Of a stretch of DNA of 64,000 nt, positions 48,450-64,000 are shown piece by piece. The DNA comes from Syntrophales bacterium (GTDB lineage: Bacteria; Desulfobacterota; Syntrophia; Syntrophales; PHBD01). The stretch covers positions 672,001 to 736,000 of the forward strand of contig OY764159.1 of the NCBI GenBank assembly GCA_963668175.1, in the 5' to 3' direction. The position numbers and the translations under genes are program-made. Each line of letters opens with the position of its first letter. Position 1 is the stretch's first letter. Under the pieces are notes generated by a model. It worked only from the letters and a program-made list of their open reading frames with translations. It did no database searches and was not told the DNA's origin.

Positions 48450-48704
48450 ATGGATGAATTGGTCAAGGAACTAAAAGTAAAGATTATCGAAACATTGGGG
48501 TTGCTGGACGTCACGCCTGACGATATTGACGAATCGGGACAACTGGTTGGAGGCGATCTCGGCCTCGATTCCATCGATGTCCTGGAGTTGGTCATGATGA
48601 TCGAGAAAGATTACGGGATTAAAATCGACAACAAGGAACTCGGCGTTAAAGTTTTTGCCTCTGTAAGGGCGTTGGCCGAACATATCCAGGCCAATCGTAC
48701 TTAA
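48450..48704 (+). CDS. Acyl carrier protein 1
   Basis: LGLDSIDVLEL phosphopantetheine site; acidic, 84 aa. Confidence 0.92.
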   Translation: MDELVKELKVKIIETLGLLDVTPDDIDESGQLVGGDLGLDSIDVLELVMMIEKDYGIKIDNKELGVKVFASVRALAEHIQANRT

Positions 48705-48741
48705 GTGTAAAAATTCTTTTCAGTCCTGCGAAGAGACAACG

Positions 48742-50214
48742 ATGACGGATACAGTTCAGGAGTCTGCCGAGATAGTCATCATCGGTTCCGGTATTGGCGG
48801 CCTTTCCGCGGGTATCATCTTGGCAAGACTCGGTTACCGGGTCGTCCTCGTCGAAAAGAACCGGCGTCCCGGCGGGTTGATGAGGGGCTACCGAAGGAGA
48901 GGATACGATTGCCCCGTAGGCATCCATTATCTGGGATCGCTGGCCGAAGGCCAGGTTATGCACCGGATGTTTCAATATCTCGGTGTCATGGACAGGATTC
49001 CTCTGGAGCGCATGGGGCGCGAAGGGATTATCGACCGTTACATCTTCCGTGATTTTATCTTCGATCTTCCCGAAGGCATTCAGGCGTTCGCAGAAAACCT
49101 GAGATCGGCCTTTCCGGGCGATCGGGACCTTATAGACGGAATAATCGGCAATATCACCGATATTGCCGCCCGTCTCGATACCCTCGAATTCCTCTACTCT
49201 CCGTCTCTTTCCATCTCATCGTTCGAGCATTTGGAATCGATGGATTCTTTTTTGACGAGGCACGGCTGCTCGCCGCGTCTCCGCGCCGTGCTGGGGGTGC
49301 CGCCTTCCTGGATAGGCCTTTCCCTCCGTGATTGCCCCGTCCTCTATCACCATATGGCTTTGGTCTCCTATCTCTTGTCCGCCTGGCGCTTAAAGAAAGA
49401 CGGTTCACAGATGGCCGATGTCCTGGTCGACCGCTTCCGGGAGTTGGGCGGACAGGTCCTGACCGGTGAAGAGGTCGAACGGATTCTCGTGAACAACTCT
49501 GTTGTCGAAGGCGTCGTCTGCAAGTCAGGGCTTCTACTCAAAACCGCATCCGTCATTGCCGCCGTCCATCCCGGAGTGGTCGTCGGGATGATTCCACCGC
49601 CTGATCTGAAGCCGTCTTATCGGCGCCGCGTCAGAGAGATGGAGAATACGCCCGGAATCTTTTCCGCAAGTTTCGTCGTCAACGACCTGTCATGCCCGGA
49701 TTATCCTTACAATATTTTCGATGTCGAGGATGACGACGAGGGCAATGTCGACACCGGAGCCTTTTATCAGCTGAGAAGGAGTCCGGAAGACGGAAAAGTC
49801 CTTCTCTCTATCCTTGTGCCGGAAACCATTGAACCCTGGCGGGCATGGGAAAATTCTCGATCGGGGCAGCGCGGCGATGCCTATCTCGAAGCCAAGGAGA
49901 AGAAGGCGGAACATTTACTAGAGACGGCAGTGACGGTCATAGGTCCCTTAAAGGATGTCGAACTCCTCGACACTTATACGCCGCTGACGATACGGGATTG
50001 GGTCGGAAGTCCCGACGGATCGGCCTATGGCGTTTCCCGCTCTACAAAACAGCTTCTTCACACGGCGACCTTAAGCCGTCCGGCCGTCCGCGGGTTGTAT
50101 TTCGCCGGGCAGAATGTCCTGCTCCCGGGCATCGTCGGTACCGTATTCGCATCGTTTCATACGGTCAAACAGATCATCGGTTATGAATGTTTTTGCAGCG
50201 AGGTCTCCTTATAG
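48742..50214 (+). CDS. Phytoene desaturase/retinol saturase family FAD-dependent oxidoreductase
   Basis: IIGSGIGG, VEKN..PGG, GIHY, TPLT.RDWVGSPDGSAYG, LYFAGQN..PGIVG. Confidence 0.85.
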   Translation: MTDTVQESAEIVIIGSGIGGLSAGIILARLGYRVVLVEKNRRPGGLMRGYRRRGYDCPVGIHYLGSLAEGQVMHRMFQYLGVMDRIPLERMGREGIIDRYIFRDFIFDLPEGIQAFAENLRSAFPGDRDLIDGIIGNITDIAARLDTLEFLYSPSLSISSFEHLESMDSFLTRHGCSPRLRAVLGVPPSWIGLSLRDCPVLYHHMALVSYLLSAWRLKKDGSQMADVLVDRFRELGGQVLTGEEVERILVNNSVVEGVVCKSGLLLKTASVIAAVHPGVVVGMIPPPDLKPSYRRRVREMENTPGIFSASFVVNDLSCPDYPYNIFDVEDDDEGNVDTGAFYQLRRSPEDGKVLLSILVPETIEPWRAWENSRSGQRGDAYLEAKEKKAEHLLETAVTVIGPLKDVELLDTYTPLTIRDWVGSPDGSAYGVSRSTKQLLHTATLSRPAVRGLYFAGQNVLLPGIVGTVFASFHTVKQIIGYECFCSEVSL

Positions 50215-50273
50215 GGGCGTACAGTTCTTCTACTGCGGGATTCATGGTATATCAGGAAACCTTCCCCTTCGCT

Positions 50274-51707
50274 TCATCTCTGTTGATCAGGCTCAAATTG
50301 CCGTCTGGCGGCGGCAAAAGACGGAAGGTGACGCAGCAAATGGAAAAGACTCCACCGGTGCTGCCATAACCGTCCGGCAAAGCGTTTGCGCCACGCCCGA
50401 TCCGAATAGAACCTCTTGACGTGCGTGTTGTAGAGAAAATCCAGTTTCTCCTTCGATTCTATCCCGCGGGGTATGAAGACAAAATTGAGGCAATTCATCA
50501 ACCGCCAGTCCTCGTGAAAAAGGCCCTCTTCATGCAGGGCTGTCCAGATGGGCGCTCCCGGAAAGGGCGTAAACTTCGACATGTTCATGTCGTCGAGCCC
50601 AAGCGACAGGGTAAAGTCGCTCGTCTTCCGGATCGACTCTTCCGTTTCGCCGGGGAGGCCCATCATGAAGAGTCCCTTGGCCCGGAGCCCGGAAGCCTTG
50701 ATCCTTGCGACGGTGTCCTCGACCTCGGCCGTCGTGACGCCCGCCTTATGGCGTTCAAGCATGGCGGGATCGGCCGATTCGATACCGATGGATACCATGA
50801 GGCAGCCGGCTTCTTTGAGCATCTTCAGCAATGCGTCATCGGCATGCCCCACCCGGACCGCACAGTTGAACTGAACGCCCAGCGGCCTTGCCGTCAGCAG
50901 GCGGCACAATTCGGCGATCCGCGGCCTGTTTAACGTGAAGAGATCGTCATAGATATTGATATGCCGGACTCCGAACCCGGTTCGGAGATGACGCATATGT
51001 TCATAGATATAACCGGCGGAATTGAAACGATGGGAGCGTTTGAAGACGGAGCGGTCGCAATACGAGCATTGATAAGGGCAGCCGCGGCTGGTCGTCATGG
51101 TAGCCCCGGGAAAATGGATGAAACTGAAAAGGGGGAGGTTGTATCCTCCGGGAAACCCTTTCAGGGAGGCATAATCGGGGAAAGGAAGCCGATCCATGTC
51201 CGGCAGCGGCTGTCGGGGTGGGTTCGTGACGATTTCGTCGCCGCGTCGCCAGATCAGACCGTCGATGTCGGCTTCTTCCCGGCCGGACGCCAGTTCGGAG
51301 AGAGTCGCTTCTCCTTCTCCGAGGCAGAGATAGTCGATTTTTTCGTACTTTTCGAGCAGCGATGCGCCCAATGCGGAGACGTGCACGCCGCCGAAGACGA
51401 CCTTGATTTCGGGACGGGCCTTCTTAATCATCGACGCCATGTCGCAACCGTCGAGAAAACTTGAAGTCGTCGTGGAGAATCCGATCATATCCGGTCTAAC
51501 GCGGAGAGCGGCCTTCACATTGGCCTCGATACCCTCGGGGGCAAAAGGGCCCAGGCAGTCGTGGACAAACACCTCGTGGCCGCCCTGCTTAAGATAGGCG
51601 GCGATGGATAGCAGTCCGAGGGGGGCCATCCGATTTGCCGTTGCCGCTATGTCCTTCCTGCCGGGCATCCAGTTGTACCCGGCCGGATGAATGAGCATGA
51701 CCCGCAT
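50274..51707 (-). CDS. Cobalamin-binding radical SAM protein
   Basis: PLGLLSIAAYL, GGVHVS, GEGE, TSRGCPYQCSYC, GIES, FMMGLPGET. Confidence 0.9.
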   Translation of the reverse strand: MRVMLIHPAGYNWMPGRKDIAATANRMAPLGLLSIAAYLKQGGHEVFVHDCLGPFAPEGIEANVKAALRVRPDMIGFSTTTSSFLDGCDMASMIKKARPEIKVVFGGVHVSALGASLLEKYEKIDYLCLGEGEATLSELASGREEADIDGLIWRRGDEIVTNPPRQPLPDMDRLPFPDYASLKGFPGGYNLPLFSFIHFPGATMTTSRGCPYQCSYCDRSVFKRSHRFNSAGYIYEHMRHLRTGFGVRHINIYDDLFTLNRPRIAELCRLLTARPLGVQFNCAVRVGHADDALLKMLKEAGCLMVSIGIESADPAMLERHKAGVTTAEVEDTVARIKASGLRAKGLFMMGLPGETEESIRKTSDFTLSLGLDDMNMSKFTPFPGAPIWTALHEEGLFHEDWRLMNCLNFVFIPRGIESKEKLDFLYNTHVKRFYSDRAWRKRFAGRLWQHRWSLFHLLRHLPSFAAARRQFEPDQQR

Positions 51708-51829
51708 AGTCCGTTTGCGAGGCCTCCAAATTTATTTGCCAACTTTCGATTCATTAGCTATAGAATGACGTATAACATTTTCGATGCCATATCAATGGTT
51801 GTATTGATCCCCGGAGGCTAAGGGAATTC

Positions 51830-53182
51830 TTGAGAGTACTGCTGATATCGCCCAACATATTGACCGCACCCTATCCCGTCTACCCCATCGGGCTGGATTA
51901 CGTGGCCGGCGCCCTTGAGGGCCGTCATGATATAAGGATTCTCGATCTTAATCGGGAATCGGGTCCCGATGTGCTTCAACGTGCCATCGATGGTTTCAGA
52001 CCCGACATCATCGGTTTCTCCATCAGGAATGTGGATAACACCGACGCCTCCAATTCGCAGAGCTTCATCGCCGGTTATAAAAGCGTGGTCGATGGGATCC
52101 GGAAATACAGTAACGCCCCCCTGGTTCTGGGCGGCAGCGGATTCACGATCTTCCCGGAAGCGCTTATGAATGCGCTGAATGCCGATTACGGCATCCAGGG
52201 CGACGGCGAATCGATGGTATGTCTTGCGGATGCCCTGGAGAATCACGGCGACCCCACTGCAATTCCCGGTGTGATGGTAAAGGGCTTTCATGCCTCGCGT
52301 CCGCCCGATCTCCCGGATAGCACTTTCCGTCGGCGTTTCAATCGGGATGACGGTCATGTCGAATATTACCTCAAGCGCGGCGGCATGTTGAACATTCAGA
52401 CAAAGCGGGGCTGTCCTTTCCGTTGCGTCTATTGTACGTATCCTCACATAGACGGTGGCCGCCTGCGGTTGACCGATCCCGACGGCGTCGCCGAAACGGC
52501 GATCGCTCTTCAAAACGCCGGCGCCAAATACCTCTTCATCACCGATTCGACGTTCAACTGCAGTGTCTCCCACAGTCTTGCAGTTGCCAAGGCCTTCATC
52601 CGGGCCGGCCTTTCCATTCCATGGGGGGCCTTTTTTGCCCCTCTCGATGTGCCCCACGACTATTACCGGATCATGGCGGATGCCGGACTGGCCCATGTCG
52701 AATTCGGCACGGAGTCCCTGACCGACGCGGTTCTTGCCGCCTACGGCAAGCCGTTCCGGAAGGCGGACGTCTTCCGGGCCCATCGTATGGCCCTCGACGC
52801 CGGGGTCCATGTCGCCCACTATCTTATGCCCGGCGGGCCCGGGGAGGACGAAGCAACGCTTTCCGAAACCCTTTCTGTGGCCGACAAGCTGGAAAAGACC
52901 GTGCTCTTTTTCTTCTGCGGCGTTCGTATTTATCCCCATACCGCCCTGTATAACCTTGCCTTGCGGGAAGGCCAGATATCGCCCGGGCAGGATTTGCTGA
53001 CGCCCGTCTTTTATCAATCGGGCAAGCTGACAAGCGATGCGATCAAGGAAGAATTGACCGCACATGCGGATGGACGCTCCCATTGGCTGATCGGTTCCGG
53101 GGGGGATAAAACGGCGAAAGTGGTCTCCCGGCTGTATGCCCGCGGACACCATGGCCCCTTATGGGAGCTTCTGACGCCATGA
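51830..53182 (+). CDS. Cobalamin-binding radical SAM protein resembling the lipid-biosynthesis (ladderane-island-associated) family
   Basis: LLISPN...PYPVYPIGL, SIRNVDN, GGSGF, QTKRGCPFRCVYCTYP, FGTES, GGPGE, GVRIYPHT. Confidence 0.85.
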   Translation: MRVLLISPNILTAPYPVYPIGLDYVAGALEGRHDIRILDLNRESGPDVLQRAIDGFRPDIIGFSIRNVDNTDASNSQSFIAGYKSVVDGIRKYSNAPLVLGGSGFTIFPEALMNALNADYGIQGDGESMVCLADALENHGDPTAIPGVMVKGFHASRPPDLPDSTFRRRFNRDDGHVEYYLKRGGMLNIQTKRGCPFRCVYCTYPHIDGGRLRLTDPDGVAETAIALQNAGAKYLFITDSTFNCSVSHSLAVAKAFIRAGLSIPWGAFFAPLDVPHDYYRIMADAGLAHVEFGTESLTDAVLAAYGKPFRKADVFRAHRMALDAGVHVAHYLMPGGPGEDEATLSETLSVADKLEKTVLFFFCGVRIYPHTALYNLALREGQISPGQDLLTPVFYQSGKLTSDAIKEELTAHADGRSHWLIGSGGDKTAKVVSRLYARGHHGPLWELLTP

Positions 53183-54654
53183 CGAAGACCGGAGCGACCA
53201 TCTGTCCCATCTCTCCCGGCGACCTGACCGGACTGGCGGCGATTAAATTGTCCATCATCCTGGCTTTTTTTCAACCCACCCTTTCCGCCGTTCCTCTCGT
53301 CGCTTACCTCTTCGCATGCGCCGCTTTGTCCCTGATTCCGACGTCGCGTTTTTTCCTTCCGGTGATCAGCCGTGGACGGACCGGAAAAGGGATCGTCGCC
53401 CTCACCTTCGACGATGGGCCCGATCCGGCCACGACGGAGAAATTGCTTGGCCTCTTGTCCCGTCATAACGTGAAGGCGACTTTTTTCGTGCCGGGCCGGC
53501 GGGCGTCGCAGCATCCCGAACTGGTCAGGAAAATACTCTCCGAAGGACACGACATCGGTAACCATTCCTGCAGCCACGATCCCTTCCTGATGCTGCGGAG
53601 CAAAGCGGTCATCGAACGTGAAATCGCATCCGGGCAGGAGATATTGACCGCCTTTGGGGTTGTGCCCCTGGCGTTCAGGCCTCCCGTCGGCACCACGAAT
53701 CCCAGGCTTTGGCGGATACTGCTCGGTCAGGGACTCATTTGCGTCACTTTCAACCGCAGGGCGGGGGATTTCGGCAACCGGCGAACGAAGGATCTCGCCG
53801 GCAGAATATTGCGCAAGGTCCGACCGGACGACATCGTCATGCTGCATGATGTCATGCCCGGACGAGGCATGGATGTGGATCTTTGGCTTCAGGAGATAGA
53901 GAAGATACTTTCAGGCTTGAAGAGTAAAGGCCTTAAGGTTGCACGACTGGCGGAAGTCATCGGGCAGCCGGTCATGGTTCCGGCCGACGCCGGCGCGGCG
54001 GTGAACCCCGTGGCGACCTTTTACGATAACCTGGCGGACGACTACGATCACGAACAGTTCGCTTCCGGAGTTTCCCTTGCCAAGAAAAAAGAGTCGGAAG
54101 CCGTATTGTCCCGGTTGCCGGGACTGGTTTCCGCGACAGACAGGGTGCTTGAAATCGGTGCCGGCACGGGTATTTTCAGCATGCCGATCGCCGGACTGTG
54201 CCGGGAGTTGGTTGCCGTCGACATATCCGGGAGGATGCTCTCGGTGCTTGAACGAAAAGCGGCCGCGGGGCATATAAACAATATCCGGTGTATTGCCGGA
54301 AATATCACGACCATGAATATCCCCGGCACCTTCGATGCAGTCTGTGCTTTTTCCTCCCTGGAATATGTTCCCAATATGACGGGGCTTTTAAAAAGATTGA
54401 CGCCGCACTTAAAACCCGGCGGCCGTTTATATTTTACGACAGCTCATTGTTCGTTCTTTCGTTTCTTTACCCAGGTTGGAAATGCCATGAGACAGGGGGT
54501 ATGGCTCCATGCCCGGACCAGAAGCGAGGTTATACGGATGCTTGCAGCTGCCGGTATGAGACCGGTGAGGATCGAAACCCATCTTATGAAGATCTTTCCC
54601 GGGGGTGGCATGATTCTTGAAATTGAAGCAATCAAAGAAGGGGCAACCCCATAG
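53179..54654 (+). CDS. Membrane-anchored polysaccharide deacetylase fused to a class I SAM methyltransferase
   Basis: N-terminal TM, LTFDDGP, GNHSCSH, FRPPVG, MLHD; then VLEIGAGTG, VDIS, LKPGG. Confidence 0.85.
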   Translation: MTKTGATICPISPGDLTGLAAIKLSIILAFFQPTLSAVPLVAYLFACAALSLIPTSRFFLPVISRGRTGKGIVALTFDDGPDPATTEKLLGLLSRHNVKATFFVPGRRASQHPELVRKILSEGHDIGNHSCSHDPFLMLRSKAVIEREIASGQEILTAFGVVPLAFRPPVGTTNPRLWRILLGQGLICVTFNRRAGDFGNRRTKDLAGRILRKVRPDDIVMLHDVMPGRGMDVDLWLQEIEKILSGLKSKGLKVARLAEVIGQPVMVPADAGAAVNPVATFYDNLADDYDHEQFASGVSLAKKKESEAVLSRLPGLVSATDRVLEIGAGTGIFSMPIAGLCRELVAVDISGRMLSVLERKAAAGHINNIRCIAGNITTMNIPGTFDAVCAFSSLEYVPNMTGLLKRLTPHLKPGGRLYFTTAHCSFFRFFTQVGNAMRQGVWLHARTRSEVIRMLAAAGMRPVRIETHLMKIFPGGGMILEIEAIKEGATP

Positions 54655-54682
54655 AAACGAAAGTATAAGGTTTTATTTTCGC

Positions 54683-56206
54683 GTGACCAGGAAACATATC
54701 TATCTCATCAATCCCAAGAGCCCGGACAATTTCTGGGCCATGAAAGGCGCACTCGATATCATCGATAAGCATAAGACCCTTATGCCGAATGCCGCGCTCC
54801 TGACCTTGATCGCCCTGACCCCGGACGATCTCGATATTCAATATACATACTGCGATGAGAATGTCGGAACGATCGATTGGAATCTCCCCTGCGATCTTGT
54901 CGGCATTACAGGCTATACCATCCAGTGGGAGCGCATGCAGGAGATTATCTCCCGCTTCAGGGCGCGCGGCATCCCCGTGGCGTGCGGCGGTGTCTATGCG
55001 ACCCTCGATGCCGACAGGGTCGGGGCCGTAGTGGATTATCTCTTTGTCGGGGAGGCGGAGTATACATGGCCCAGGTTTCTCAGGGAATGGTGCAATGGCG
55101 GCGCCGGCCGGGTTTACAGGCAGGAATCGTTCGTCAATATCGAGGATACGCCTGCTCCGGACTTTTCTTATATAAAACCGGAAGATTACCATTACTATTC
55201 CGTCCAGACGAGCCGGGGTTGCCCCAACAACTGCCAGTTCTGCGACGTTGTTCTGTTTGCCGGCCGGAAGTACCGCTGCAAAACGATCGGGCAGATCTTG
55301 CGGGAAGTGCAACAGGCATCGGATTGCGGGGCGGAGACGGTCTTCTTTTCCGATGACAACTTTCTGGTGGATAAGGCGTTCACCGTCGGACTTCTGAAAG
55401 AACTTATCGCCTGGAACAGACAACAGGACCGTCCCTTGTCCTTCAGCACCCAGGCGACGGTGATGGTAGGAGACGACGAAGAAATCCTGCGCCTGCTGGC
55501 CGATGCGCGCTTCAGCGTTATTTTCCTCGGGCTGGAGTCCATCAGTAAGGAATGCCTTCAGGAAGTGAATAAAGGACAACTGGCCCGTTTCGACCCCTAC
55601 GAGGTCATCCCCCGTATATCGAGTTACGGAATCGTTCCATTCCTGGGAATGATCGTCGGGTTCGATCACGATACACCCGCCGTATTCCGGGAGATAGACG
55701 AATTCCTTAACGAAACGGGGAGCCCGATCGCGTCGATCAGCGTCCTTAACGCACCGAAAAACACACCTCTGTATGCGAAAATGAAGAGGGAAGGCCGTAT
55801 CATCGAGGATTTCAACGGGCTATGGCACCAGACCTCCAATATCGTGCCCAAGCAGATGAGCCTGGACGAGCTTCATCGCGGGCATAAAGAACTTTTTAAG
55901 AAGATTTATGAACCTCGACACTTCGAATACCGCATGATCCGCTGGCTTGAAAATGTGAAATACTTCACCGATTTGTATTCCACGCGGAAAAAAAATCTGT
56001 TTCGGGTGTTGACGATTGTGAAGATATTCCGCCATTTCAACTTTCGCGTATCCCCGCAGGAGCGGCGAATGTTCTGGCGGGTTCTCGTCGCCGCCTGGAG
56101 GATCGATCCGCGCCTTATTTCACGAACCGTCTCCATGATGGTTCAATATTGGCATTATCGCGATTTTTCGCAGAAGGAGGCATGGCAGCAAGGGGAAATC
56201 GGCTGA
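54683..56206 (+). CDS. Cobalamin-binding radical SAM protein (DUF4070-like C-terminus)
   Basis: DENV, GGVYAT, GEAE, QTSRGCPNNCQFC, DDNF, GLES, IVGFDHD; GTG start chosen (ORF track extends to 54617). Confidence 0.85.
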   Translation: MTRKHIYLINPKSPDNFWAMKGALDIIDKHKTLMPNAALLTLIALTPDDLDIQYTYCDENVGTIDWNLPCDLVGITGYTIQWERMQEIISRFRARGIPVACGGVYATLDADRVGAVVDYLFVGEAEYTWPRFLREWCNGGAGRVYRQESFVNIEDTPAPDFSYIKPEDYHYYSVQTSRGCPNNCQFCDVVLFAGRKYRCKTIGQILREVQQASDCGAETVFFSDDNFLVDKAFTVGLLKELIAWNRQQDRPLSFSTQATVMVGDDEEILRLLADARFSVIFLGLESISKECLQEVNKGQLARFDPYEVIPRISSYGIVPFLGMIVGFDHDTPAVFREIDEFLNETGSPIASISVLNAPKNTPLYAKMKREGRIIEDFNGLWHQTSNIVPKQMSLDELHRGHKELFKKIYEPRHFEYRMIRWLENVKYFTDLYSTRKKNLFRVLTIVKIFRHFNFRVSPQERRMFWRVLVAAWRIDPRLISRTVSMMVQYWHYRDFSQKEAWQQGEIG

Positions 56207-56243
56207 AATGACGGTTAAAGATATCGGTATTTCACATGAATTA

Positions 56244-56288
56244 AAGATGAAAGTTCATCTTGACAGTACAATGACCCCTTGATATGTG
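56244..56288 (+). promoter_or_regulatory. Sigma70-like promoter with overlapping palindromic operator
   Basis: AAGATGAA-AG-TTCATCTT palindrome overlapping TTGACA (56260-56265), then N17 and TATGTG. Confidence 0.45.
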
Positions 56289-56325
56289 AAGACTTTATGT
56301 CTTATAATGTATTTATCGGATTATC

Positions 56326-56700
56326 ATGACGGAAGACAAATGGCATTCCCTTGAATGCAAGGCTGGGAACAGTGCCGACGGCGTTGTTGCAGACGCCCTT
56401 GTCGAACCAGGTTCTCCGTGGTTCTCCGGTCACTTCCCGGGCTGGCCCATTCTTCCGGGCGTCGCCATGTTGTCCATGGTCGGCGAGGCCGTCCGGCATG
56501 ACGAGCGGAAGCGCGGCGTGAAGGTGAGAATAAACGGCGTCAAGAGGGTGCGGTTCCGGCAGCCGATCCGTCCCGACGATCCGATATCGATATCCCTCTC
56601 CCGCACGGAGGGGGAAAGAGAGAATTCGTATAACTTCAAAATCGTCGTTCGGCAGGACATTGCCTGTTCGGGGGTTATGACGGCAAAAAGGATTGATTAA
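56326..56700 (+). CDS. Hotdog-fold 3-hydroxyacyl-ACP dehydratase (FabZ/ApeI-like)
   Basis: WFSGHFPGWPILPGV, VRFRQPIRP. Confidence 0.85.
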   Translation: MTEDKWHSLECKAGNSADGVVADALVEPGSPWFSGHFPGWPILPGVAMLSMVGEAVRHDERKRGVKVRINGVKRVRFRQPIRPDDPISISLSRTEGERENSYNFKIVVRQDIACSGVMTAKRID

Positions 56701-56779
56701 GCCGAACGACGGATAATTCATAGAAGGCATATGGAATAGTGCACCATACCCTATGTGATTTCAGGAGGAAATGAGTTAA

Positions 56780-57058
56780 ATGCCTGCAAATGGTGATAAA
56801 CAATCGATCATAACGCGCGTTGCCGACATCATTATTTCGGAACTCAAGCTGGAAGATGTGACCGCGGCAACCTTTGACCCCGATCTTGATCTGGTGGATG
56901 AACTAGGCATCGACAGCATGGATTTGGCGACGGTAGCCCTGATCCTTCAGGACGAATACGGTATTGTCATCGACGAGGACGACTATCCGAAGCTTGTGAA
57001 TGTCCGTCTTATCGCCGAGTATATTATGGAAAAGTTATCCAGCTCCGATAAACAGTAA
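56780..57058 (+). CDS. Acyl carrier protein 2
   Basis: LGIDSMDL site; very acidic; AGGAGG RBS. Confidence 0.92.
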   Translation: MPANGDKQSIITRVADIIISELKLEDVTAATFDPDLDLVDELGIDSMDLATVALILQDEYGIVIDEDDYPKLVNVRLIAEYIMEKLSSSDKQ

Positions 57059-57072
57059 ATGGTTGTCCGCTG

Positions 57073-58161
57073 ATGCGATTGGTTCCGAAACCCATAGGTA
57101 AACACACCGACAGGACCGCCGGTCAAAAATGGCGGTTTGCGGACCTGCTCGGCGAAGAGGCTGTCCGCCTCCGCTGGGAAAAAGTCAGGCAATATTTTTT
57201 CCTCAGGGAGTCGACCTATGACATGACCAATCGCTGCAACATCCGTTGCGAGGGATGCTATTACTACGAAGGTGAAAAGCAGTTTGCCGAAGAGAATGCC
57301 GATCCCGCCGCCTGGCGCAAACTGATGCGCGAAGAAAAGGAGCGCGGGATCACCTATGTTGTCCTTGCCGGGGCGGAACCCTCCCTGGTTCCAGAGTTGT
57401 TGGCGGTATGCTTCGAGGAGATGCCGCTCGGCTCCATCGCTTCGAACGGCTTCCGCCGTATTCCCGAAACCGTCGGATATAGAATCCACGTGTCCGTCTG
57501 GGGCAACGATAAGACCAGCCGGCGCATACGCGGGGCCAAGGGACTTCTCGCCAAGCAGATTGAAAATTATCAGGCCGATCCGAGGGCCGTGTTCGTTTAT
57601 ACTTTCACGCGGGATAACATCGATGAAGTCTACGAAGTGATGGAATCCATCGTTGCCCACGGCTGTAAAATAACATTCAACATGTTTTCTTCGCCGGTGG
57701 GTTACACGGGACCGCTTCGTCACGATAAATCGTCGCTGGCGCGCACGCGTCGGGTCATGCTCGACCTCTTGTCCCGGTACCCGCGGGAGGTGTTGTTCTC
57801 ACCCTACAATGTCATGGCTCATACCCATGCTTACGGACTCCATGCCCTTTATGAATGTCCGTACCCGAGGATGAATCCTTCAACGGCGATCGGTCTCGGC
57901 CGCTCTTTCCGACAGTACCGCACCGATCTATCCTGGGACAGAAATGTGGCCTGCTGTGTCCCCGATACGGATTGCGAAGATTGCCGGCACTACGCCTCCG
58001 GAAGTGCCGTCGTTACAGCGCGTCTTTTCCGGCATGCGACCGACCCCGATAAATTCAAGGCGTGGCTCGATTACGTCGATACCTATTTGGCGGTCTGGCT
58101 CATGGGATACGAAAAGGGTGAAAACCTGTGCCGGGACATCGTGGAGCCCCCGGGGGCTTGA
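57073..58161 (+). CDS. Radical SAM protein (no B12 domain) with C-terminal Cys cluster, paralog A
   Basis: YDMTNRCNIRCEGCYYY, GAEP, SNG, VSVWG; ECP...CC....CEDC. Confidence 0.85.
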   Translation: MRLVPKPIGKHTDRTAGQKWRFADLLGEEAVRLRWEKVRQYFFLRESTYDMTNRCNIRCEGCYYYEGEKQFAEENADPAAWRKLMREEKERGITYVVLAGAEPSLVPELLAVCFEEMPLGSIASNGFRRIPETVGYRIHVSVWGNDKTSRRIRGAKGLLAKQIENYQADPRAVFVYTFTRDNIDEVYEVMESIVAHGCKITFNMFSSPVGYTGPLRHDKSSLARTRRVMLDLLSRYPREVLFSPYNVMAHTHAYGLHALYECPYPRMNPSTAIGLGRSFRQYRTDLSWDRNVACCVPDTDCEDCRHYASGSAVVTARLFRHATDPDKFKAWLDYVDTYLAVWLMGYEKGENLCRDIVEPPGA

Positions 58162-58259
58162 ATGCAGAGGGATACATCGACGACGTGTGTTTTCCGGGAA
58201 TCCGGCCGCGATCGTTTGACGAGTAAAATGCAGCAAAGGAAGAGATACGATATTATATA

Positions 58260-59258
58260 ATGAATACCGTCAGTTCGTTGCTCGACCAGGCATGGTACGA
58301 GCGCTACAAGAGAATTTCACGCCTGAATATCCGCAGTTCGATATACGATGTCACCAATCAATGCAACCTGCGTTGCAAGGGATGTTTCTTTTTTTCGTCG
58401 GATGAGCACAAAGCGGCGCCGGAAGAAACCGACCTATCCAAGTGGGAGGCCTTCGTCGACGGAGAAAAAAACCGGGGCGTCAATCTGGCCATTCTCATCG
58501 GTGGTGAGCCGACCCTTCACCTGGACCGGGTAGAGATCTTCTATAAGAGACTTCCCTCGTATTGCGCGACCAACGGTTTGATCAAGGTTCCCAGGGACCG
58601 TTTCCCGGACATGATGGTCGGTATTTCGCTATGGGGGGATGAAACCGACGAAAAGACGCTGCGGGGCAAGGATACCTTTGCCGTTTCCAGCAAGAATTAC
58701 GAGAACGACCCGTATACCTACTATCTGTATACCATTACACCGAAGCAATTGGGACGGACGGAACGTGTTATCAAGAGGATTGCCGATGCGGGCCTGAAGG
58801 TCCATATGCAGCTTTTGTCCAACGACGAAAAGGTCGACGGGTTTTTCTGGTCGCCGCAGGAACTGCAGGAGATCCGTGCGGAAATGGACGAGATGCTGGA
58901 CAAATATCCCCGGACGGTCGTGTCGTGCAAGTATTACCATGAGATCATCTGTTCCGGGAGGATGTTCGGCCGCCCCTTCGGATGGGGGGAATGCCCCTCC
59001 GTGACGGAAACGGTCGACCACAGAGACCCCAAACCCAAGCGGCTTATCCATTTCATCCGCTGGGCCTCGGACCTGAACACTATGCATCGCTGCTGCACGT
59101 CGGCCACCCGCGATTGCGGAACGTGCAAGGACGGTGCGGCCCATATGAGCTGGGTCATGGTGAATAAGCGGGAACATCTGCGGTCGACGAAAGACCTTCA
59201 GAACTGGATAGAAGTATATGAGATGTTCGCGAAACTTTACAGTTTCATCCCCTGGTAG
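58260..59258 (+). CDS. Radical SAM protein (no B12 domain) with C-terminal Cys cluster, paralog B
   Basis: YDVTNQCNLRCKGCFFF, GGEP, TNG, ISLWG; ECP...CC.....CGTC. Confidence 0.85.
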   Translation: MNTVSSLLDQAWYERYKRISRLNIRSSIYDVTNQCNLRCKGCFFFSSDEHKAAPEETDLSKWEAFVDGEKNRGVNLAILIGGEPTLHLDRVEIFYKRLPSYCATNGLIKVPRDRFPDMMVGISLWGDETDEKTLRGKDTFAVSSKNYENDPYTYYLYTITPKQLGRTERVIKRIADAGLKVHMQLLSNDEKVDGFFWSPQELQEIRAEMDEMLDKYPRTVVSCKYYHEIICSGRMFGRPFGWGECPSVTETVDHRDPKPKRLIHFIRWASDLNTMHRCCTSATRDCGTCKDGAAHMSWVMVNKREHLRSTKDLQNWIEVYEMFAKLYSFIPW

Positions 59259-59389
59259 TTTGTCGAGCCTTCATGTATCCTATTCCCAAGCAAGATATCT
59301 AAATCTCCGATCTTTTAGGTGAAAGGCGCTCCTGTTTTAGGGGTATTCGATTCGGGACAATATCATTAGAGAGGGATCAGAAGACAGGT

Positions 59390-60640
59390 ATGACTGAAAG
59401 CCGTCCCGTCATATTGGGTTATGATGCCGCCTCCCCGCTCGGTACGGACATGAAGACCCAGTGGGAAAGGGCGACGGAAGGCAAGAGCGGCGTCAGGCCC
59501 CTGACGCGGTTCTCTCTCCGCGATGGGTTTCCGGTCCGCGTTGCCGGCGAGGTTGACGACATCGACATCGGGCCCTATCCGTTTCTCAAGCCCCGGGAAA
59601 TGGCCCATTGGACGTCGCCGATTTTCAAATATGCGATGCTGGTTGTGCACCGGGCCCTCCGGAAGAGCGGAATCGAGATGACGCCCGACATCGCGCCGCG
59701 GGTCGCCACGACCTTCAGCACGGCCATCGGCGGGCTGGATGCCGTGATCCAGGCGGATCGCCTCATGGTCGCCGAGGGAAAGCTGCCCCACCCCTTTACC
59801 AATCCGAATTCCTGCATTAACATGGTGGGGGGGAAGGTCTCCATCCTCACCACGGCGTCCGGTCCGATCTGTTCGCCGGTTACGGCCTGCGCCACGGGCT
59901 CCTCGTCGATGATCATGGGGGCGATGTTCCTTGAACAGGGTATGGCGGATGTGGCCATATGCGGGGCCGTCGATTTCGCCCTTGTTGAACCGATTGTCGG
60001 CGGTTTTGCCACGATGAACGGCGCCTACCGGCCGAAGGAAGGGCAGCCGGAAGAACCGGCGGAATCTCTGAGCCGCCCCTTCTCCCTGAACCGCCGCGGC
60101 TTCATTGTTTCCGAGGGTGCCGGGTGCGTGGTCATTGCGACGCGGGAATTCGCCAGGTCCCACGGGCTTGAAGCGCATATCGAAATGGCGGGGTGGGCCA
60201 TGACCGCGGACGCCTGTCATTTTGTAGCGCCGAACTACGCGACGGTCAGGCGCTGTATGTCCGAGTGCATCACTCACGCCGGGATCGATCCTGCCGATAT
60301 CGACGCCGTCAATGCCCATGCGGCTTCAACGAAAGTGGGTGACAAGGTGGAGGCGGACGCCCTGCATGATGTCTTTAATGGTGCCGTGCCGCCCGTTTCG
60401 GCCAACAAATCGCTCATCGGGCATGCCATGGGGGCCTCCAGCGCCATCGAGTCCATCTTTGCCATGGAAGGTATGCTGAACGACACGATCCTGCCGACGA
60501 TCAACTACAAGCCCGATCCGGCCATTGTAATCGATTGTGTCCCGGAGGGGGCGCGGCATTCGGAGCAGGAGTATGTTTTGAAGAATGCGTTCGGTTTCGG
60601 CGGCTGCAATGCCTGCATTATATTTCACAGGATAGATTAA
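59390..60640 (+). CDS. Beta-ketoacyl-ACP synthase (FabF-like) 1
   Basis: TACATG (Cys), NAHAAST (His), KSLIGH (His), NAFGFGG. Confidence 0.92.
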   Translation: MTESRPVILGYDAASPLGTDMKTQWERATEGKSGVRPLTRFSLRDGFPVRVAGEVDDIDIGPYPFLKPREMAHWTSPIFKYAMLVVHRALRKSGIEMTPDIAPRVATTFSTAIGGLDAVIQADRLMVAEGKLPHPFTNPNSCINMVGGKVSILTTASGPICSPVTACATGSSSMIMGAMFLEQGMADVAICGAVDFALVEPIVGGFATMNGAYRPKEGQPEEPAESLSRPFSLNRRGFIVSEGAGCVVIATREFARSHGLEAHIEMAGWAMTADACHFVAPNYATVRRCMSECITHAGIDPADIDAVNAHAASTKVGDKVEADALHDVFNGAVPPVSANKSLIGHAMGASSAIESIFAMEGMLNDTILPTINYKPDPAIVIDCVPEGARHSEQEYVLKNAFGFGGCNACIIFHRID

Positions 60641-60651
60641 CGGCGGATTTC

Positions 60652-61917
60652 ATGAAAGCTCCCTTGAACAGACGTGTCTTTGTCATAGGCTACGGTGCAG
60701 CCACCCCGCTGGGCGGGACCTTCTCCCAAACCTGGGAACGGGCGGTGAAAGGTGAGGCGGGATTCAGAAAGGTTACCCGCTGCGACGTGAAAACGGTTTG
60801 CGACGTCGTCGGCGAGATTCCTGACTGGAATCCCCGGATGTTCGATTTTACGACGGCCAAAGAGGCCTATAACTGGAACGCTGCCTTTGTTCTTCTGACC
60901 ATGGGTGTCTGCAAGGAGGCTTTGAATCACGCCCGCCTCGAAATGAATGCCGAAACGGGGCCCCGCACGGCTTGCCTGATCGGGTCCGCCCTGAACGGAA
61001 CGGATGCCTTCCGGGTCGCCGTCAACAATCTGCGCGAGAAGGGGGCCCTGAAGATCAGTCCCTATCTGCTTCCCAATTTGTGCGCAAACCTTCCTTCCGG
61101 CAAGGCGGGTATCCTCCTCGGCTTTACGGGACCGATCTTCTCCCCCCAGGGTGCTTGCGCTTCGGGAAATCATGCCGTCGGCATCGGGGCCAGGATGATC
61201 AGGGACGGCGATTGCGATTTTGTCCTTGCCGGGGGCGTGGATATGGCCCTTGTTCCAGAGTTGATTCACGGCTTTGAGAACATGAACGCGACGGTCAAGA
61301 TGACGCCGAAAGACAGGGCCTATCAGGATCCGACCCAGGCTTCCAGGCCTTTCAGCATCGACCGCAAGGGGTTTGTACTGTCAGAAGGAGCGGGGGTTTT
61401 GGTTCTCGCTGCGGAAGAGATGCTGGCCGCCCACGGTCTTACCCCCAAGGCGGAGGTGCTCGGCATCGGGTGGACGTCGGACGCCTTCCATTTCACGAAT
61501 CCCAACCCCGAGACGATCGTCCGGGCCATCAAGGAAGCCGTCGACGATGCGGGTCTTGCGCCCCAGGATATCGAATACGTCAATACGCACGGGACGTCCA
61601 CGCCCAAGGGCGACCTCGTCGAAGTCCAGTGCCTCAGGAAAATATTCGGAGACTATTTGGGGAAGATGCCCATATCGTCCAACAAATCCCAGATCGGCCA
61701 TACGCTGGGCGCCGCGGCGGCCATAGAGGCCGCCCTGACGATCGAGGGCATGAATCGGGGTATTGTCCTGCCGACAATCAACCATATGCCGGACCCCCGC
61801 CTCGACGACGTCGACGTGGTTCCTAATCAGGCCCGCAGGAAACAGGTGGAGATCGCCCTGTCCAATGCGTTCGGGTTCGGTGGGACGAATTGCTGCGTCA
61901 TCTTCAAGGGGGCATGA
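60652..61917 (+). CDS. Beta-ketoacyl-ACP synthase (FabF-like) 2
   Basis: GACASG (Cys), NTHGTST (His), KSQIGH (His), NAFGFGG. Confidence 0.92.
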   Translation: MKAPLNRRVFVIGYGAATPLGGTFSQTWERAVKGEAGFRKVTRCDVKTVCDVVGEIPDWNPRMFDFTTAKEAYNWNAAFVLLTMGVCKEALNHARLEMNAETGPRTACLIGSALNGTDAFRVAVNNLREKGALKISPYLLPNLCANLPSGKAGILLGFTGPIFSPQGACASGNHAVGIGARMIRDGDCDFVLAGGVDMALVPELIHGFENMNATVKMTPKDRAYQDPTQASRPFSIDRKGFVLSEGAGVLVLAAEEMLAAHGLTPKAEVLGIGWTSDAFHFTNPNPETIVRAIKEAVDDAGLAPQDIEYVNTHGTSTPKGDLVEVQCLRKIFGDYLGKMPISSNKSQIGHTLGAAAAIEAALTIEGMNRGIVLPTINHMPDPRLDDVDVVPNQARRKQVEIALSNAFGFGGTNCCVIFKGA

Positions 61918-61918
61918 T

Positions 61919-62398
61919 ATGAAGCCAAAACCTTTCCGGCCGGAGCCCTTCTCTGCCGATGAGCGCTACGTGAGGGACACGACGACGGGCCTGACCTGGC
62001 ACCGCTGCCGCAACCGCACGCTCTATGCCGATACGGACCGATCCGCCGTCGTCTACCACGCCAATTATCTGCGCTACTTCGAGCTGGGCCGGGCGACGCT
62101 GATGCGGGATGCGGCCTATCCGTACCGTGAAGTCGAGGACGACGGCTATGTGTACCCGATTATCGAAACGGGCATTACCTTTTACCAGCCGCTATATTAC
62201 GACGACCCCATGTGGGTCCATACCAGGCCGGCCGAGTTGGAGAGGGTACGCCTTAAATTCGAATACGCCGTCACCCACGCGGACACCCAGGTCCTTATCT
62301 GCAAAGGGTTCACCCGGCACTGCGCCCTCAACAAGTCGGGGAGGCCCGTGTCCGTAGATCCCAAGACCGTTCAGCTCTGGAAAAATTTTCCTGCATGA
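61919..62398 (+). CDS. Acyl-CoA/ACP thioesterase (YbgC/4HBT family)
   Basis: YADTDRSAVVYHANYLRYFELGR motif. Confidence 0.88.
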   Translation: MKPKPFRPEPFSADERYVRDTTTGLTWHRCRNRTLYADTDRSAVVYHANYLRYFELGRATLMRDAAYPYREVEDDGYVYPIIETGITFYQPLYYDDPMWVHTRPAELERVRLKFEYAVTHADTQVLICKGFTRHCALNKSGRPVSVDPKTVQLWKNFPA

Positions 62399-63240
62399 AA
62401 GAGACGACACGTAAACCTCTCTCCATCGAGGTTCTACCCTATCTACGGGACCACCGGTCCGAAGGGAAAACGGTCCTCCCGGCGGTGGAGGCCCTGCAGC
62501 GGCTGGCGCTGTCCGTCCGGGAGCACTTCCCGGCAATCCATACGCAGGCCATGTATCGCGCCTCTTTCCCGAGGTTTCTCGTCATCGAGCCGGAAGATAG
62601 GAACATCAACGCCTATGGCGAGTTTTTGACGAACGACGGAGGTTATCTCCGTGCGGATCTCGTCACGCTCAGCGTTTCCCCGAAAATGCGGATCGGCCGG
62701 TCCAAAGTCTATGCCTCGGTCTGTTTTAAGGAAAATCCCCCCGATATCGACTTTCCTGAAAGGGATAACGCCTTCGCGGCGGGAGAAGGAGCCTTCACCT
62801 TGTCGGCGGAGCAACTGTACCGGGAACTGGTCCCACTGGGGCCGTCGTACCGCAATGCCTGTGAACCGATCCGCCTGGGACGCCTGGGCGCCACGGGGTA
62901 CCTGAAAGCGCCGGTTCTGCCTGCGCCCGTCGAGCCGCTCGGATCGCCGTTCCCGTTCGATGCCGCGATGCACTGCGCCTGTGCGTGGTCCCAAAGGTAT
63001 TATGGCGTCATCGCCTTTCCTGTCGGTTTCGAACGGCGGATCATCCGCCGCAATACCCGCCCCGGCGGAAACTACCGGTGCCGGATCGTTCCCGTATCGG
63101 AAGAGAAGGGCGTCCTGACCTTCGATATCCGGATTGACGATGAGCAGGACGATCTCTGTGAACTCATAACGGGCGTGAAGATGCAGGATGTCACCGCCGG
63201 CAGGTTGAGCCCGCCCCGGTGGGTCCGGGATAGTGCTTGA
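62395..63240 (+). CDS. Stand-alone PKS-type (double hotdog) dehydratase
   Basis: YLRDHRSEGKTVLP (HxxxGxxxxP), LY...GPSY, FDAAMH (DxxxH), FPVGF. Confidence 0.75.
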   Translation: MKETTRKPLSIEVLPYLRDHRSEGKTVLPAVEALQRLALSVREHFPAIHTQAMYRASFPRFLVIEPEDRNINAYGEFLTNDGGYLRADLVTLSVSPKMRIGRSKVYASVCFKENPPDIDFPERDNAFAAGEGAFTLSAEQLYRELVPLGPSYRNACEPIRLGRLGATGYLKAPVLPAPVEPLGSPFPFDAAMHCACAWSQRYYGVIAFPVGFERRIIRRNTRPGGNYRCRIVPVSEEKGVLTFDIRIDDEQDDLCELITGVKMQDVTAGRLSPPRWVRDSA

Positions 63241-63271
63241 CAGGACGGAAAAATTCATATTTAGGTGCATT

Positions 63272-63541
63272 ATGACACGTGAAGAGATACTTGCTGAAAT
63301 TATAAGAATATTTCACGAAGAGTTCGAAATCGACAACCCCGGTTTGGACGACAATTTACGGGAAAAATATCATTTTGACAGCATCGATGCCATTGAGTTG
63401 CTCGTGGAAATAGAGAGAATGCTGCGGTCGGAGTTGACCCAGGAAGAGAAGAAGGGGGCGATGGACATAAGGACCATCAACGACATCTGCGACTATATCG
63501 AAGCCCTTATCCGAAAAAGATCGGCTCCGGTGGGCGGTTAG
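63272..63541 (+). CDS. Acyl carrier protein 3
   Basis: FDSIDAIELL site; IRTINDICDYI. Confidence 0.9.
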   Translation: MTREEILAEIIRIFHEEFEIDNPGLDDNLREKYHFDSIDAIELLVEIERMLRSELTQEEKKGAMDIRTINDICDYIEALIRKRSAPVGG

Positions 63542-63654
63542 AGCTTCCCCTGACGGCCTGACTTGACGGGCCGGCTCCTTCCGGTCGGTTCGCCGACCGG
63601 ACGTCATGAGCGCATTCTTCAGTTTGACGAAATATTAAGGATAACCTGGAATAT

Positions 63655-64000
63655 ATGGCAAGAAGAGTCGTTATTACGGCCGGTGCGGCCATTACGCCCA
63701 TCGGTCACGGCAAGCAGGAGATCATCGCGAGTCTCTTAAACGGCGTCTCCGGCGTCAAGAGTCTCCGTGAAGACGGGGTCCTGACAGGTTACATCCATTC
63801 GAAGGTCTTCGGAACCGTCGATTATCCGATCGCCTACGATTTTAAGAGGCTGTACCGCAAGACCATGGGGCCCGTCGCCTTTTATGCGTGCCAGGTGGCC
63901 AAGGAAGTCCTGGAACAGGCAGGTCTGGACAGCCAATTTATCACGTCGGGCCGTTTGGGGGTTGCGTTCGGCTCGACACACGGCAGCCCGACCGTCCAGA
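63655..64000 (+). CDS. Beta-ketoacyl-ACP synthase 3 (N-terminal part; truncated by window edge; not in ORF track)
   Basis: Own translation: MARRVVITAGAAITPIGHGKQEIIASLLNGVSGV...RKTMGPVAFYA...SGRLGVAFGSTHGSPTVQ. Confidence 0.85.
   Translation, partial: MARRVVITAGAAITPIGHGKQEIIASLLNGVSGVKSLREDGVLTGYIHSKVFGTVDYPIAYDFKRLYRKTMGPVAFYACQVAKEVLEQAGLDSQFITSGRLGVAFGSTHGSPTVQ

Follow-up and report, generated by a model that had tools for sequence, protein, structure and literature searches.

A gene cluster at the right end of the DNA stretch analyzed here is likely, to judge from its gene content, to build a fatty-type chain on an acyl carrier protein (ACP), likely to alter that chain by radical S-adenosylmethionine (SAM) chemistry, and likely to install the product in a membrane glycerolipid; any specific radical chemistry is far less certain than this overall lipid reading. 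The stretch, called the window below, comprises 64,000 nucleotides from a Syntrophales bacterium (GenBank assembly GCA_963668175.1, contig OY764159.1, positions 672,001 to 736,000; G000:C1:672001-736000), whose genome is closed at 4.57 Mb. At the center of the cluster is an eight-gene core cassette that encodes a FabZ-like dehydratase, an ACP (ACP2), twin radical SAM (rSAM) enzymes (rSAM_d and rSAM_e), two ketosynthases (KS1 and KS2), a thioesterase (TE), and a second dehydratase (DH2).

Gene content was called from the open reading frame (ORF) listing and from Pfam and NCBIfam searches; the remainder of the gene for a third ketosynthase (KS3) and an acyltransferase gene were read from the genome beyond position 64000. 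Linkage was determined for 52 of the 95 loci that bore orthologues, each having at least 9 kb on both sides, and a homologue was counted when it lay within 10 kb of the core. The core held together in nearly all of them: rSAM_e and KS1 were present in 52 loci, ACP2 in 51, KS2 and TE in 50 each, DH2 in 49, and the FabZ-like gene in 48. Because the same genes occur in the same order in dozens of genomes, this linkage is far more than chance. An earlier interpretation made from the letters of this DNA (the sequence-only reading) had treated the genes as one system, to be checked by co-conservation in related genomes, and the presence of the core genes in 48–52 of the 52 fully flanked loci bears it out. 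Core identities ranged from 63 to 79% in these loci, with a median of 79% for rSAM_e, but were approximately 40% for both dehydratases.

All eight core genes lie on the plus strand. A promoter-like site, assigned by consensus match (TTGATA-18-TATAAT, 11/12 matches; plus strand, 56279–56308), directly precedes the FabZ-like gene and was the best match in the region in a promoter scan. The FabZ/ApeI-like single-hotdog dehydratase (56326–56700; PF07977, 39.7 bits) is followed by ACP2, the carrier of the cassette (56780–57058; PF00550), by rSAM_d (57073–58161) and rSAM_e (58260–59258), and by the FabF-like ketosynthases KS1 (59390–60640; called by Pfam) and KS2 (ORF 60535–61917, with a likely true start at 60652). 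The cassette is completed by a 4HBT/YbgC-type hotdog thioesterase (ORF 61763–62398, likely start 61919; PF13279 and PF03061; TIGR00051 at 75.8 bits, cut-off 68.7) and by DH2 (62395–63240), a stand-alone polyketide synthase (PKS)-type double-hotdog dehydratase recognized by its AlphaFold2 (AF2) fold.

Catalytic residues were examined at the motif positions of these enzyme families. The residues checked were invariant across all orthologues examined. The Cys-His-His triad, intact in both KS1 and KS2, was kept in 80/80 KS1 and 73/73 KS2 orthologues; the phosphopantetheine Ser of ACP2 in 90/90; the catalytic His of the FabZ-like protein in 76/76; the TE Asp in 42/42; and, for DH2, both the His of HxxxGxxxxP and the Asp of DxxxH/Q in 65/65.

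The two dehydratases and the two ketosynthases were then compared with solved structures. DH2 gave Pfam matches below threshold; its AF2 model (predicted local distance difference test score, pLDDT, 92.2) is a double hotdog whose top structural matches are the dehydratase domains of PKSs, namely MlnB (5hst, TM-score 0.76), CurJ, and AlnB. The FabZ-like protein scored 28.4 bits against the ApeI-like family PF22818, for which the cut-off is 28.5, and an orthologue scored 37.2 bits. Its top Protein Data Bank (PDB) matches were 3esi, FabZ proteins, and 6qsr, with scores of 35 bits for 3esi, 33 for ordinary FabZ, and 20–24 for chains 7qv0 and 8ay*, which we take to be amxFabZ. KS1 scored 247 bits against ordinary FabF, versus 135 and 125 bits against chains 9s5h_B and 9s5h_C; KS2 scored 286 bits against ordinary FabF versus 202 bits against 9s5h_B.

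The twin rSAM enzymes, neither of the B12 type, are paralogues with 25% identity. rSAM_d, a twitch/SPASM-like enzyme recognized by its motifs and AF2 model, has the following invariant or nearly invariant elements: the CX3CX2C motif (C55, C59, and C62), GAEP at 100–103, and a C-terminal CC-x5-C-x2-C segment (C294, C295, C301, and C304), which could hold an auxiliary Fe-S cluster. In rSAM_e, seven Cys residues were kept in 84/84 orthologues. No NCBIfam or Pfam subfamily covers the two enzymes. The AF2 model of rSAM_d (pLDDT 86.8) matched the folds of SuiB, SkfB, anSME, ChlB, viperin, MoaA, BlsE, and GDGT-MAS with TM-scores of 0.49 or lower, and its sole clear solved relative by profile was SkfB, at 50 bits. 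The core fold is the same as that of the solved twitch/SPASM enzymes (SkfB 6efn, SuiB 5v1q, anSME 4k36, MoaA 1tv7, BlsE 7vob, and GDGT-MAS 7tom), and both groups combine CX3CX2C with a Cys-rich C-terminal segment; however, at 13–21% identity and such TM-scores the likeness is generic only. rSAM_d has four conserved C-terminal Cys residues in place of the SPASM pattern of seven, and the predicted partner of rSAM_d and rSAM_e is an ACP in place of a peptide.

The rSAM_d orthologues merged into one full-length cluster when grouped at 50%, with relatives outside it 28–42% identical. Two distant relatives are parts of larger proteins: P0238 (724 aa) consists of a TubC_N docking domain, a type I thioesterase, and a radical SAM domain, and P0265 (562 aa) of a radical SAM domain and part of an AMP-binding domain. 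By domain content, the family thus appears to occur also within assembly lines of the PKS/nonribosomal peptide synthetase (NRPS) type, and these fusions weakly support rSAM action on carrier-bound thioesters.

The distribution of the cassette was examined in a phylum survey of 301 sampled genomes, including 260 of high quality, from 201 genera. A homologue of rSAM_d was found in 25 of the 301 genomes, 21 of the 260 high-quality genomes, and 16 of the 201 genera. All but one of the 25 were clear orthologues (E value of 1e-120 or better), the other being a 38% relative. A second match, corresponding to the paralogue rSAM_e, was found in 22 of the 24 genomes with a clear orthologue and was adjacent wherever both positions were given. 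Genome G180, which is 98% complete, had no rSAM_d match, though it belongs to the same genus as the carrier G082.

Among species genomes, at least 595 stretches encode an rSAM_d relative, and the best 80 of these were all 70–78% identical. Their titles named Syntrophaceae, Syntrophales, Smithella, Syntrophus, Desulfonema, Desulfosarcina, Desulfobacterales, and metagenome-assembled genomes (MAGs) of 'delta proteobacterium'; also among the best 80 were 10 MAGs labelled Spirochaetota and one labelled Gammaproteobacteria. Ten distant relatives that were looked up had cluster members labelled Alphaproteobacteria and Sphingomonadaceae only, and Atlas searches returned clusters from Thermodesulfobacteriota and Verrucomicrobiota only, with no anammox rows. 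In a tree of rSAM_d, rSAM_e, and KS1, nine of the ten Spirochaetota-labelled loci (L037, L038, L040, L056, L060, L063, L071, L092, and L096) formed one clade beside Syntrophales-type sequences and L082 stood apart; the clade could reflect an old transfer or a consistently labelled lineage.

Around the core the cluster is modular, with a module A, a module B, and accessory genes. Module A consists of ACP1 and B12rSAM_b (37 of the 52 loci each), a deacetylase (36), and a small membrane protein (27). Module B consists of ACP3 and KS3 (19 each), an acyltransferase (18), and a flavoprotein (15). The accessories, B12rSAM_a and B12rSAM_c, were linked in 7 and 4 loci. The sequence-only reading had listed ACPs, ketosynthases, two dehydratases, a thioesterase, a flavoprotein, a deacetylase-methyltransferase fusion, and five rSAM enzymes, and the ORF, Pfam, and NCBIfam calls confirmed the entire inventory; its 'at least 3' ketosynthases proved to be exactly three, all with Cys-His-His. 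The five rSAM enzymes are indeed all present, three of the B12 type and two of the twitch type, with one on the minus strand, but only three of them are commonly linked in related loci.

The probable first gene of the cluster, and of module A, encodes the small membrane protein (47966–48349, plus strand), which in translation has 127 aa and two predicted transmembrane helices; it had no match in Pfam or NCBIfam, and its linkage suggests that it probably belongs to the cluster. ACP1 (48450–48704, plus strand; PF00550) passed NF006617 with 72.3 bits (cut-off 70) and had a median identity of 70% in its 37 loci. B12rSAM_b (51830–53182, plus strand) passed the curated NCBI model TIGR04072, 'rSAM_ladder_B12', for lipid biosynthesis B12-binding/radical SAM proteins, with 393.9 bits (cut-off 360); its next-best models were BzaD (188 bits) and tryptophan 2-C-methyltransferase (155 bits). 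TIGR04072 matches above the cut-off were found in 55 of the 301 genomes of the phylum and fell into two tiers, 560–672 and 360–430 bits. In genome G286, a top-tier TIGR04072 protein (640.6 bits; G286:C29:132294-133622, upstream of L008) is encoded beside ACP1-like and KS-like genes, approximately 10 kb from the twin-rSAM cassette of that genome, and thus a 'classical' TIGR04072 module and the cassette can be side by side.

The deacetylase of module A is a membrane-anchored CE4 polysaccharide deacetylase fused, by Pfam, to a class I SAM methyltransferase in a single 497-aa ORF (53161–54654, plus strand), with the deacetylase domain (PF01522) at residues 72–187 and the methyltransferase domain (PF13649/PF08241) at residues 329–425. 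Homologues in related loci had a median query coverage of 0.55, that is, they usually have no methyltransferase domain; the fused form, of approximately 497 aa, was found in eight loci including the present one. No anammox methyltransferase was among the matches listed in PDB searches with the fusion.

Module B is divided in position. Its flavoprotein (48742–50214, plus strand; PF13450 and PF01593) is a flavin adenine dinucleotide (FAD) protein of the amine-oxidase/CrtI (phytoene desaturase) superfamily that scored 97 bits against the CrtD model (cut-off 550), and its FAD-binding N-terminus alone matched solved structures. The other genes follow the core. ACP3 (63233–63541, plus strand; PF00550) precedes KS3, an ApeR/FabB-like ketosynthase (63655–64890, plus strand; Pfam and PDB searches) that crosses the window edge at 64000, and a PlsC-type (LPLAT-type) acyltransferase is the last cluster gene (64898–65668 in window-equivalent coordinates; Pfam on the genome sequence). 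The claim that the cluster continues past the edge was therefore correct. The Cys-His-His of KS3 was kept in 24/24 orthologues. Its top PDB matches were 4ewg (324 bits) and 7f27 (320 bits), with FabB at 227 bits. In PMC8358021, 4ewg is named as an ApeR homologue and the AbApeR structure is reported, 7f27 being in the same paper; by these scores the nearest solved relatives of KS3 appear to be the ApeR ketosynthases of aryl-polyene (APE) clusters.

The accessory B12rSAM_a (50274–51707, minus strand; PF02310 and PF04055) is BchE/HpnJ-like, although HpnJ (185 bits) and BchE (164 bits) were both far under the NCBIfam cut-offs. B12rSAM_c (54617–56206, plus strand; PF04055, PF13282, and a weak PF02310 match) carries DUF4070. 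The role of these two in the pathway is the least certain, because they are rare neighbors of the core and the genome holds more than 20 B12-rSAM paralogues.

Genes that accompany the cassette elsewhere were identified by unbiased clustering of all ORFs in related loci, with the eligible loci as denominators. PlsY lies directly after DH2 in 30/63 loci. A 724-aa fusion of a ketosynthase and a chain length factor (KS-CLF) was found in 28/65, a flavin reductase-rubredoxin in 16/65, a FabG-like short-chain dehydrogenase/reductase (SDR) in 14/65, a phosphopantetheinyl transferase-domain protein in 12/62, a FabA-like protein in 11/67, a LolA-like protein in 11/64, and an LpxL-like acyltransferase in 8/63. 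None of these is in the present cluster. The present copy is notable for its five rSAM enzymes, two of them rare accessories, for the fused deacetylase-methyltransferase, and for having no KS-CLF gene.

In window coordinates the cluster spans 47966, the start of the small membrane protein gene, to 65668, the end of the acyltransferase gene, so that its right end is 1.7 kb past the window edge. In the ORF listing, neighboring genes overlap or have tight spacing throughout. No ketoreductase, enoyl reductase, or malonyl transferase gene is encoded in the cluster, and Pfam found no AMP-binding or SDR domain between 47966 and 65668. Rfam at gathering thresholds gave no riboswitch or other match from 40000 to 64000. 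A sigma-54 promoter scan gave 18 matches versus 22.8 expected by chance, with none ahead of the cluster. The cluster DNA was present whole in four sequencing runs, all carrying one organism label; no RNA run was listed among those containing it.

Several genes at the borders were considered. Linkage of a 704-aa coiled-coil protein (45833–47947) and of a sigma-54 activator (43110–44504) was not conserved in related loci, and neither was retained as a cluster gene. Just downstream of the activator gene is the best sigma-54-type site (44699–44714, one mismatch), before an unrelated 126-aa ORF (44767–45147); the match count for the whole window was not above chance. On the other side, a MuiA-family 'mucoidy inhibitor' gene (DUF4139/DUF4140; 65675–67405) begins 7 bp after the acyltransferase gene on the same strand; it was excluded from the cluster because 0/52 related loci have a MuiA-like gene.

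The same genome has a separate primary fatty acid synthase (FAS). An acpP-fabF pair lies beside yceD at genome positions 668813–670327; FabA-like genes and another ketosynthase gene lie near 4.02 Mb, and further ketosynthase genes elsewhere. Since a housekeeping acpP-fabF pair exists outside the cluster, the cluster is not the primary FAS, and the possibility, raised with the sequence-only reading, that its KS and ACP genes were the organism's only primary FAS is ruled out. The genes near 4.02 Mb (G000:C1:4019215-4022154, minus strand) are two FabA/FabZ-family genes adjoining a ketosynthase gene, candidates for making ordinary unsaturated fatty acids independently of the cluster.

Two other loci of this genome also combine ACP and ketosynthase genes. 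At approximately 6–6975 of L020 (G000:C1:4430001-4450000), genes for a BioA-like aminotransferase and for BioF-like and BioD-like proteins are interleaved with genes for an SDR, an ACP, a nitroreductase-family protein, and a ketosynthase; this biotin-type operon looks like a dedicated pimelate-arm FAS module. At approximately 2577–17566 of L019 (G000:C1:4450001-4470000) is a second type II PKS-like cluster. It encodes an aromatic amino acid ammonia-lyase, two AMP-binding enzymes, an enoyl-CoA hydratase, an adjacent KS-family pair and a further ketosynthase, an ACP 43% identical to ACP1, an ABC-2 transporter, and a D-Ala-D-Ala-ligase-like ATP-grasp protein, and it is possibly an aryl-starter polyene pathway.

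The following pathway is proposed for the lipid reading. Lacking a ketoreductase, an enoyl reductase, and a malonyl transferase, the core would rely on the FabD and FabG of the primary FAS. KS1 and KS2 would each be responsible for defined elongation steps on ACP2, and the two dehydratases would leave enoyl or dienoyl intermediates, since no enoyl reductase is dedicated to the line. rSAM_d and rSAM_e would each start one step based on hydrogen abstraction from the unsaturated ACP2-bound chain; candidate reactions are formation of a C-C bond or ring, desaturation, and heteroatom insertion, among which sequence cannot discriminate. The suggestion of the sequence-only reading that an ACP-bound polyunsaturated intermediate is reworked by radical chemistry is thus far plausible. 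After these radical steps the chain would be released or handed on. B12rSAM_b is predicted to C-methylate a chain built on ACP1, because its nearest named relatives are the methyltransferases BzaD and TsrM. Extension of the product and its transfer to a lysolipid are the predicted functions of KS3, ACP3, and the PlsC-type acyltransferase. The linked acyltransferases, of the PlsC type here and in 18/52 loci or PlsY in 30/63 loci of relatives, point to a glycerolipid as the destination.

A number of observations weigh against this proposal. The linkage counts are not independent events, because the loci were picked by similarity and come from kin. With no ketoreductase, enoyl reductase, or malonyl transferase of its own, the cluster depends on borrowed enzymes for its chain logic. 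The core thioesterase argues for release of a free acid and not for direct transfer to a lipid, and the acyltransferases accompany the core in only approximately one-third (PlsC type) or one-half (PlsY) of the loci. B12rSAM_b belongs to the lower TIGR04072 tier, at approximately 393 bits versus 560–672 elsewhere. The two accessory rSAM enzymes are rare neighbors (7/52 and 4/52 loci), and the B12-rSAM paralogues of the genome number more than 20. Finally, the APE-like parts (the ApeR-like ketosynthase and ApeI-like dehydratase here, the LolA-like and LpxL-like proteins in relatives) would fit a minor outer-membrane pigment lipid as readily as a bulk membrane lipid.

Such a pigment is the basis of one alternative, which we consider possible but unlikely: the product would be an APE-like conjugated polyene lipid, perhaps lacking the aryl group, that resides in the outer membrane and protects against redox damage or stress, with the rSAM enzymes tailoring the polyene. 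The proximity of KS3 to ApeR, the borderline ApeI-like score of the FabZ-like protein, the lack of an encoded enoyl reductase, the NF006617 match of ACP1, and the LPLAT-type acyltransferase all agree with it, as do the KS-CLF fusion and the LolA-like and LpxL-like proteins in a fraction of the relatives. Nevertheless, a CLF, an aryl-starter adenylation enzyme, and an ApeQ-type ketoreductase are all missing from the cluster; the twin-rSAM cassette, which is its best-conserved portion, is without an equivalent in the characterized APE pathway as described in PMC8358021; and the PlsY linkage in relatives suggests sn-1 acylation of glycerol phosphate. It is improbable that the thioesterase instead frees a small molecule, a signal or a fatty-acid-derived secondary metabolite, that is not a membrane lipid. 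The 4HBT thioesterase does belong to the core and is present in 50/52 loci, many loci have no acyltransferase, and the distant rSAM relatives are found in PKS/NRPS-type fusions; yet identities of 70–80% across families are very high and resemble those of housekeeping-type lipid genes more than those of secondary metabolism, many loci have a linked PlsY or PlsC, and no exporter is conserved beside the core.

Two further explanations derive from work on anammox bacteria. A pathway that makes (poly)unsaturated fatty acids or hydrocarbons without oxygen, with the flavoprotein and rSAM enzymes as desaturases, follows the proposal of Rattray for genes shared by Kuenenia and Desulfotalea, and seems quite doubtful here. 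Desulfotalea, with a similar cluster, has polyunsaturated hydrocarbons and no ladderanes (PMC2649909), and the present cluster does have a CrtI-superfamily flavoprotein and two dehydratases. However, the CrtI homologues of Kuenenia were inactive on phytoene and no new fatty acids appeared when the candidate genes were expressed in Escherichia coli (PMC4790861), just 15/52 loci have the flavoprotein with the core, and the separate FabA-like and ketosynthase genes could make ordinary unsaturated fatty acids. That the product is a true ladderane, a fatty acid with concatenated cyclobutanes, is very improbable indeed. The resemblance is one of families only: the TIGR04072 match together with type II FAS (FAS II), rSAM, and CrtI-like content. 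Against it, ladderanes are described as confined to anammox bacteria and none were found in Desulfotalea despite its similar cluster (PMC2649909, PMC9902471), features of the anammox Cluster I (below) are missing, including a ketosynthase with a mutated triad, and the dehydratase is nearer to ApeI-like proteins than to chains 7qv0 and 8ay*.

Within the preferred reading, a membrane glycerolipid whose acyl chain is altered by radical chemistry, the arrangement of two ketosynthases, two dehydratases, and two sister rSAM enzymes around one ACP and one thioesterase suggests a more specific, highly speculative version that we would not expect to hold: the core may be a machine to 'elongate, dehydrate, close ring by radical chemistry', putting small carbocycles into a fatty acyl chain as it grows, and this in ordinary anaerobes. 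If it were true, the stepwise ('type c') ladderane chemistry, which has been proposed but never shown, would have a culturable model in this system, and unexplained cyclic or branched lipids of sediments could originate from it.

The cassette bears on how rSAM enzymes modify fatty-acyl chains. According to a 2026 review, the rSAM roles are still unproven, and the ketoacyl lipids for which rSAM modification has been proposed are limited to ladderanes and the Jaw5 product (PMC13459092). There is no genetic system for anammox bacteria (PMC10139942). The distribution of the twin-rSAM cassette is much wider than that of anammox: it occurs in 24 of the 301 phylum genomes, and species genomes contain at least 595 stretches that encode a relative. 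The cassette is also strongly constrained. The closed genome and the four runs holding the whole DNA under one organism label indicate that a strain or enrichment may exist. Solving the cluster would define a new lipid class of anaerobes of the syntrophic and sulfate-reducer type as well as a new rSAM reaction whose substrates are bound to a carrier.

The cluster adds little as a discovery, its type being already in print. The sequence-only reading had stated that it matched no known pathway and was the best candidate for a novel system in the window; that claim did not survive, because the 'ladderane-like' FAS II plus rSAM type to which the cluster belongs was published in 2009 and has stayed an unsolved orphan since then (PMC2649909), and genome mining has reported it in Desulfobacterota (PMC9902471). 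Rattray and coworkers described FAS II clusters of Kuenenia in 2009 with SAM radical, methylase, phytoene-dehydrogenase-like, and deacetylase-like genes and many FabF paralogues, and similar clusters with no known product in the deltaproteobacteria Desulfotalea, Geobacter, and Pelobacter; in Desulfotalea psychrophila polyunsaturated hydrocarbons were found and ladderanes were not (PMC2649909). Javidpour and coworkers (2016) list kuste3335–3352 of Kuenenia stuttgartiensis; their candidate genes expressed in E. coli gave no new fatty acids, and the Kuenenia CrtI homologues had no phytoene desaturase activity (PMC4790861). In a 2023 survey, Desulfobacterota were among the phyla with antiSMASH 'ladderane' clusters, to which no function was assigned (PMC9902471), ladderanes themselves being described as confined to anammox bacteria (PMC2649909, PMC9902471). 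We found no characterized product for such clusters in the open-access literature, and no gene-for-gene synteny with a characterized biosynthetic gene cluster, so that this objection to the sequence-only reading did not materialize.

Compared with the kuste3335–3352/Desulfotalea/Geobacter/Pelobacter type, the present cluster shares the extra ACPs, several FabF/FabB paralogues, a FabZ-like dehydratase, B12-type and other rSAM enzymes, and a small membrane protein, and, at the level of domains only, a phytoene-desaturase-like flavoprotein, a deacetylase-like protein, and a SAM methyltransferase. In contrast to that type it has no phenylacetyl-CoA-ligase-like gene, glycosyltransferase, FabG, or mutated-triad ketosynthase, and it has five rSAM enzymes and the fused deacetylase-methyltransferase. 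The anammox 'Cluster I' (kuste3603–3608) encodes amxACP, amxFabZ, an amxFabF2/amxFabFmut heterodimer, a PDH-like protein, and a B12 rSAM enzyme, and is described as present only in ladderane producers (PMC10139942; bioRxiv 10.64898/2026.05.19.726425). The recipe is shared: an ACP, a FabZ-like dehydratase, two adjacent FabF homologues, a CrtI-like flavoprotein, and a B12 rSAM enzyme. However, Cluster I has a KS/CLF-like heterodimer with a dead triad, whereas all three ketosynthases here keep Cys-His-His; ordinary FabF is a closer match to both KS1 and KS2 than chains 9s5h_B and 9s5h_C are; and the FabZ-like protein is likewise nearer to ApeI-like proteins than to its presumed anammox counterparts.

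The resemblance to APE clusters (ApeA–R) is real but partial. The sequence-only description of a hybrid between the ladderane island and an aryl-polyene architecture agrees with the TIGR04072 match, with ApeR as the nearest solved relative of KS3, and with a FabZ-like protein that scores at the ApeI-like threshold. Shared features are a FabB-like homodimer-type ketosynthase nearest ApeR, several dedicated ACPs, a thioesterase, an LPLAT-type acyltransferase, and the lack of a dedicated enoyl reductase; the hotdog dehydratase, so close to the PF22818 cut-off, may be another. APE clusters also have a KS-CLF pair (ApeO-ApeC), ApeH-type aryl-starter adenylation, the ApeQ ketoreductase, and LolA/MMPL export genes, whereas the present cluster has none of these. 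Conversely, the characterized APE clusters, as described in PMC8358021, have no radical SAM enzymes, whereas the present cluster encodes five.

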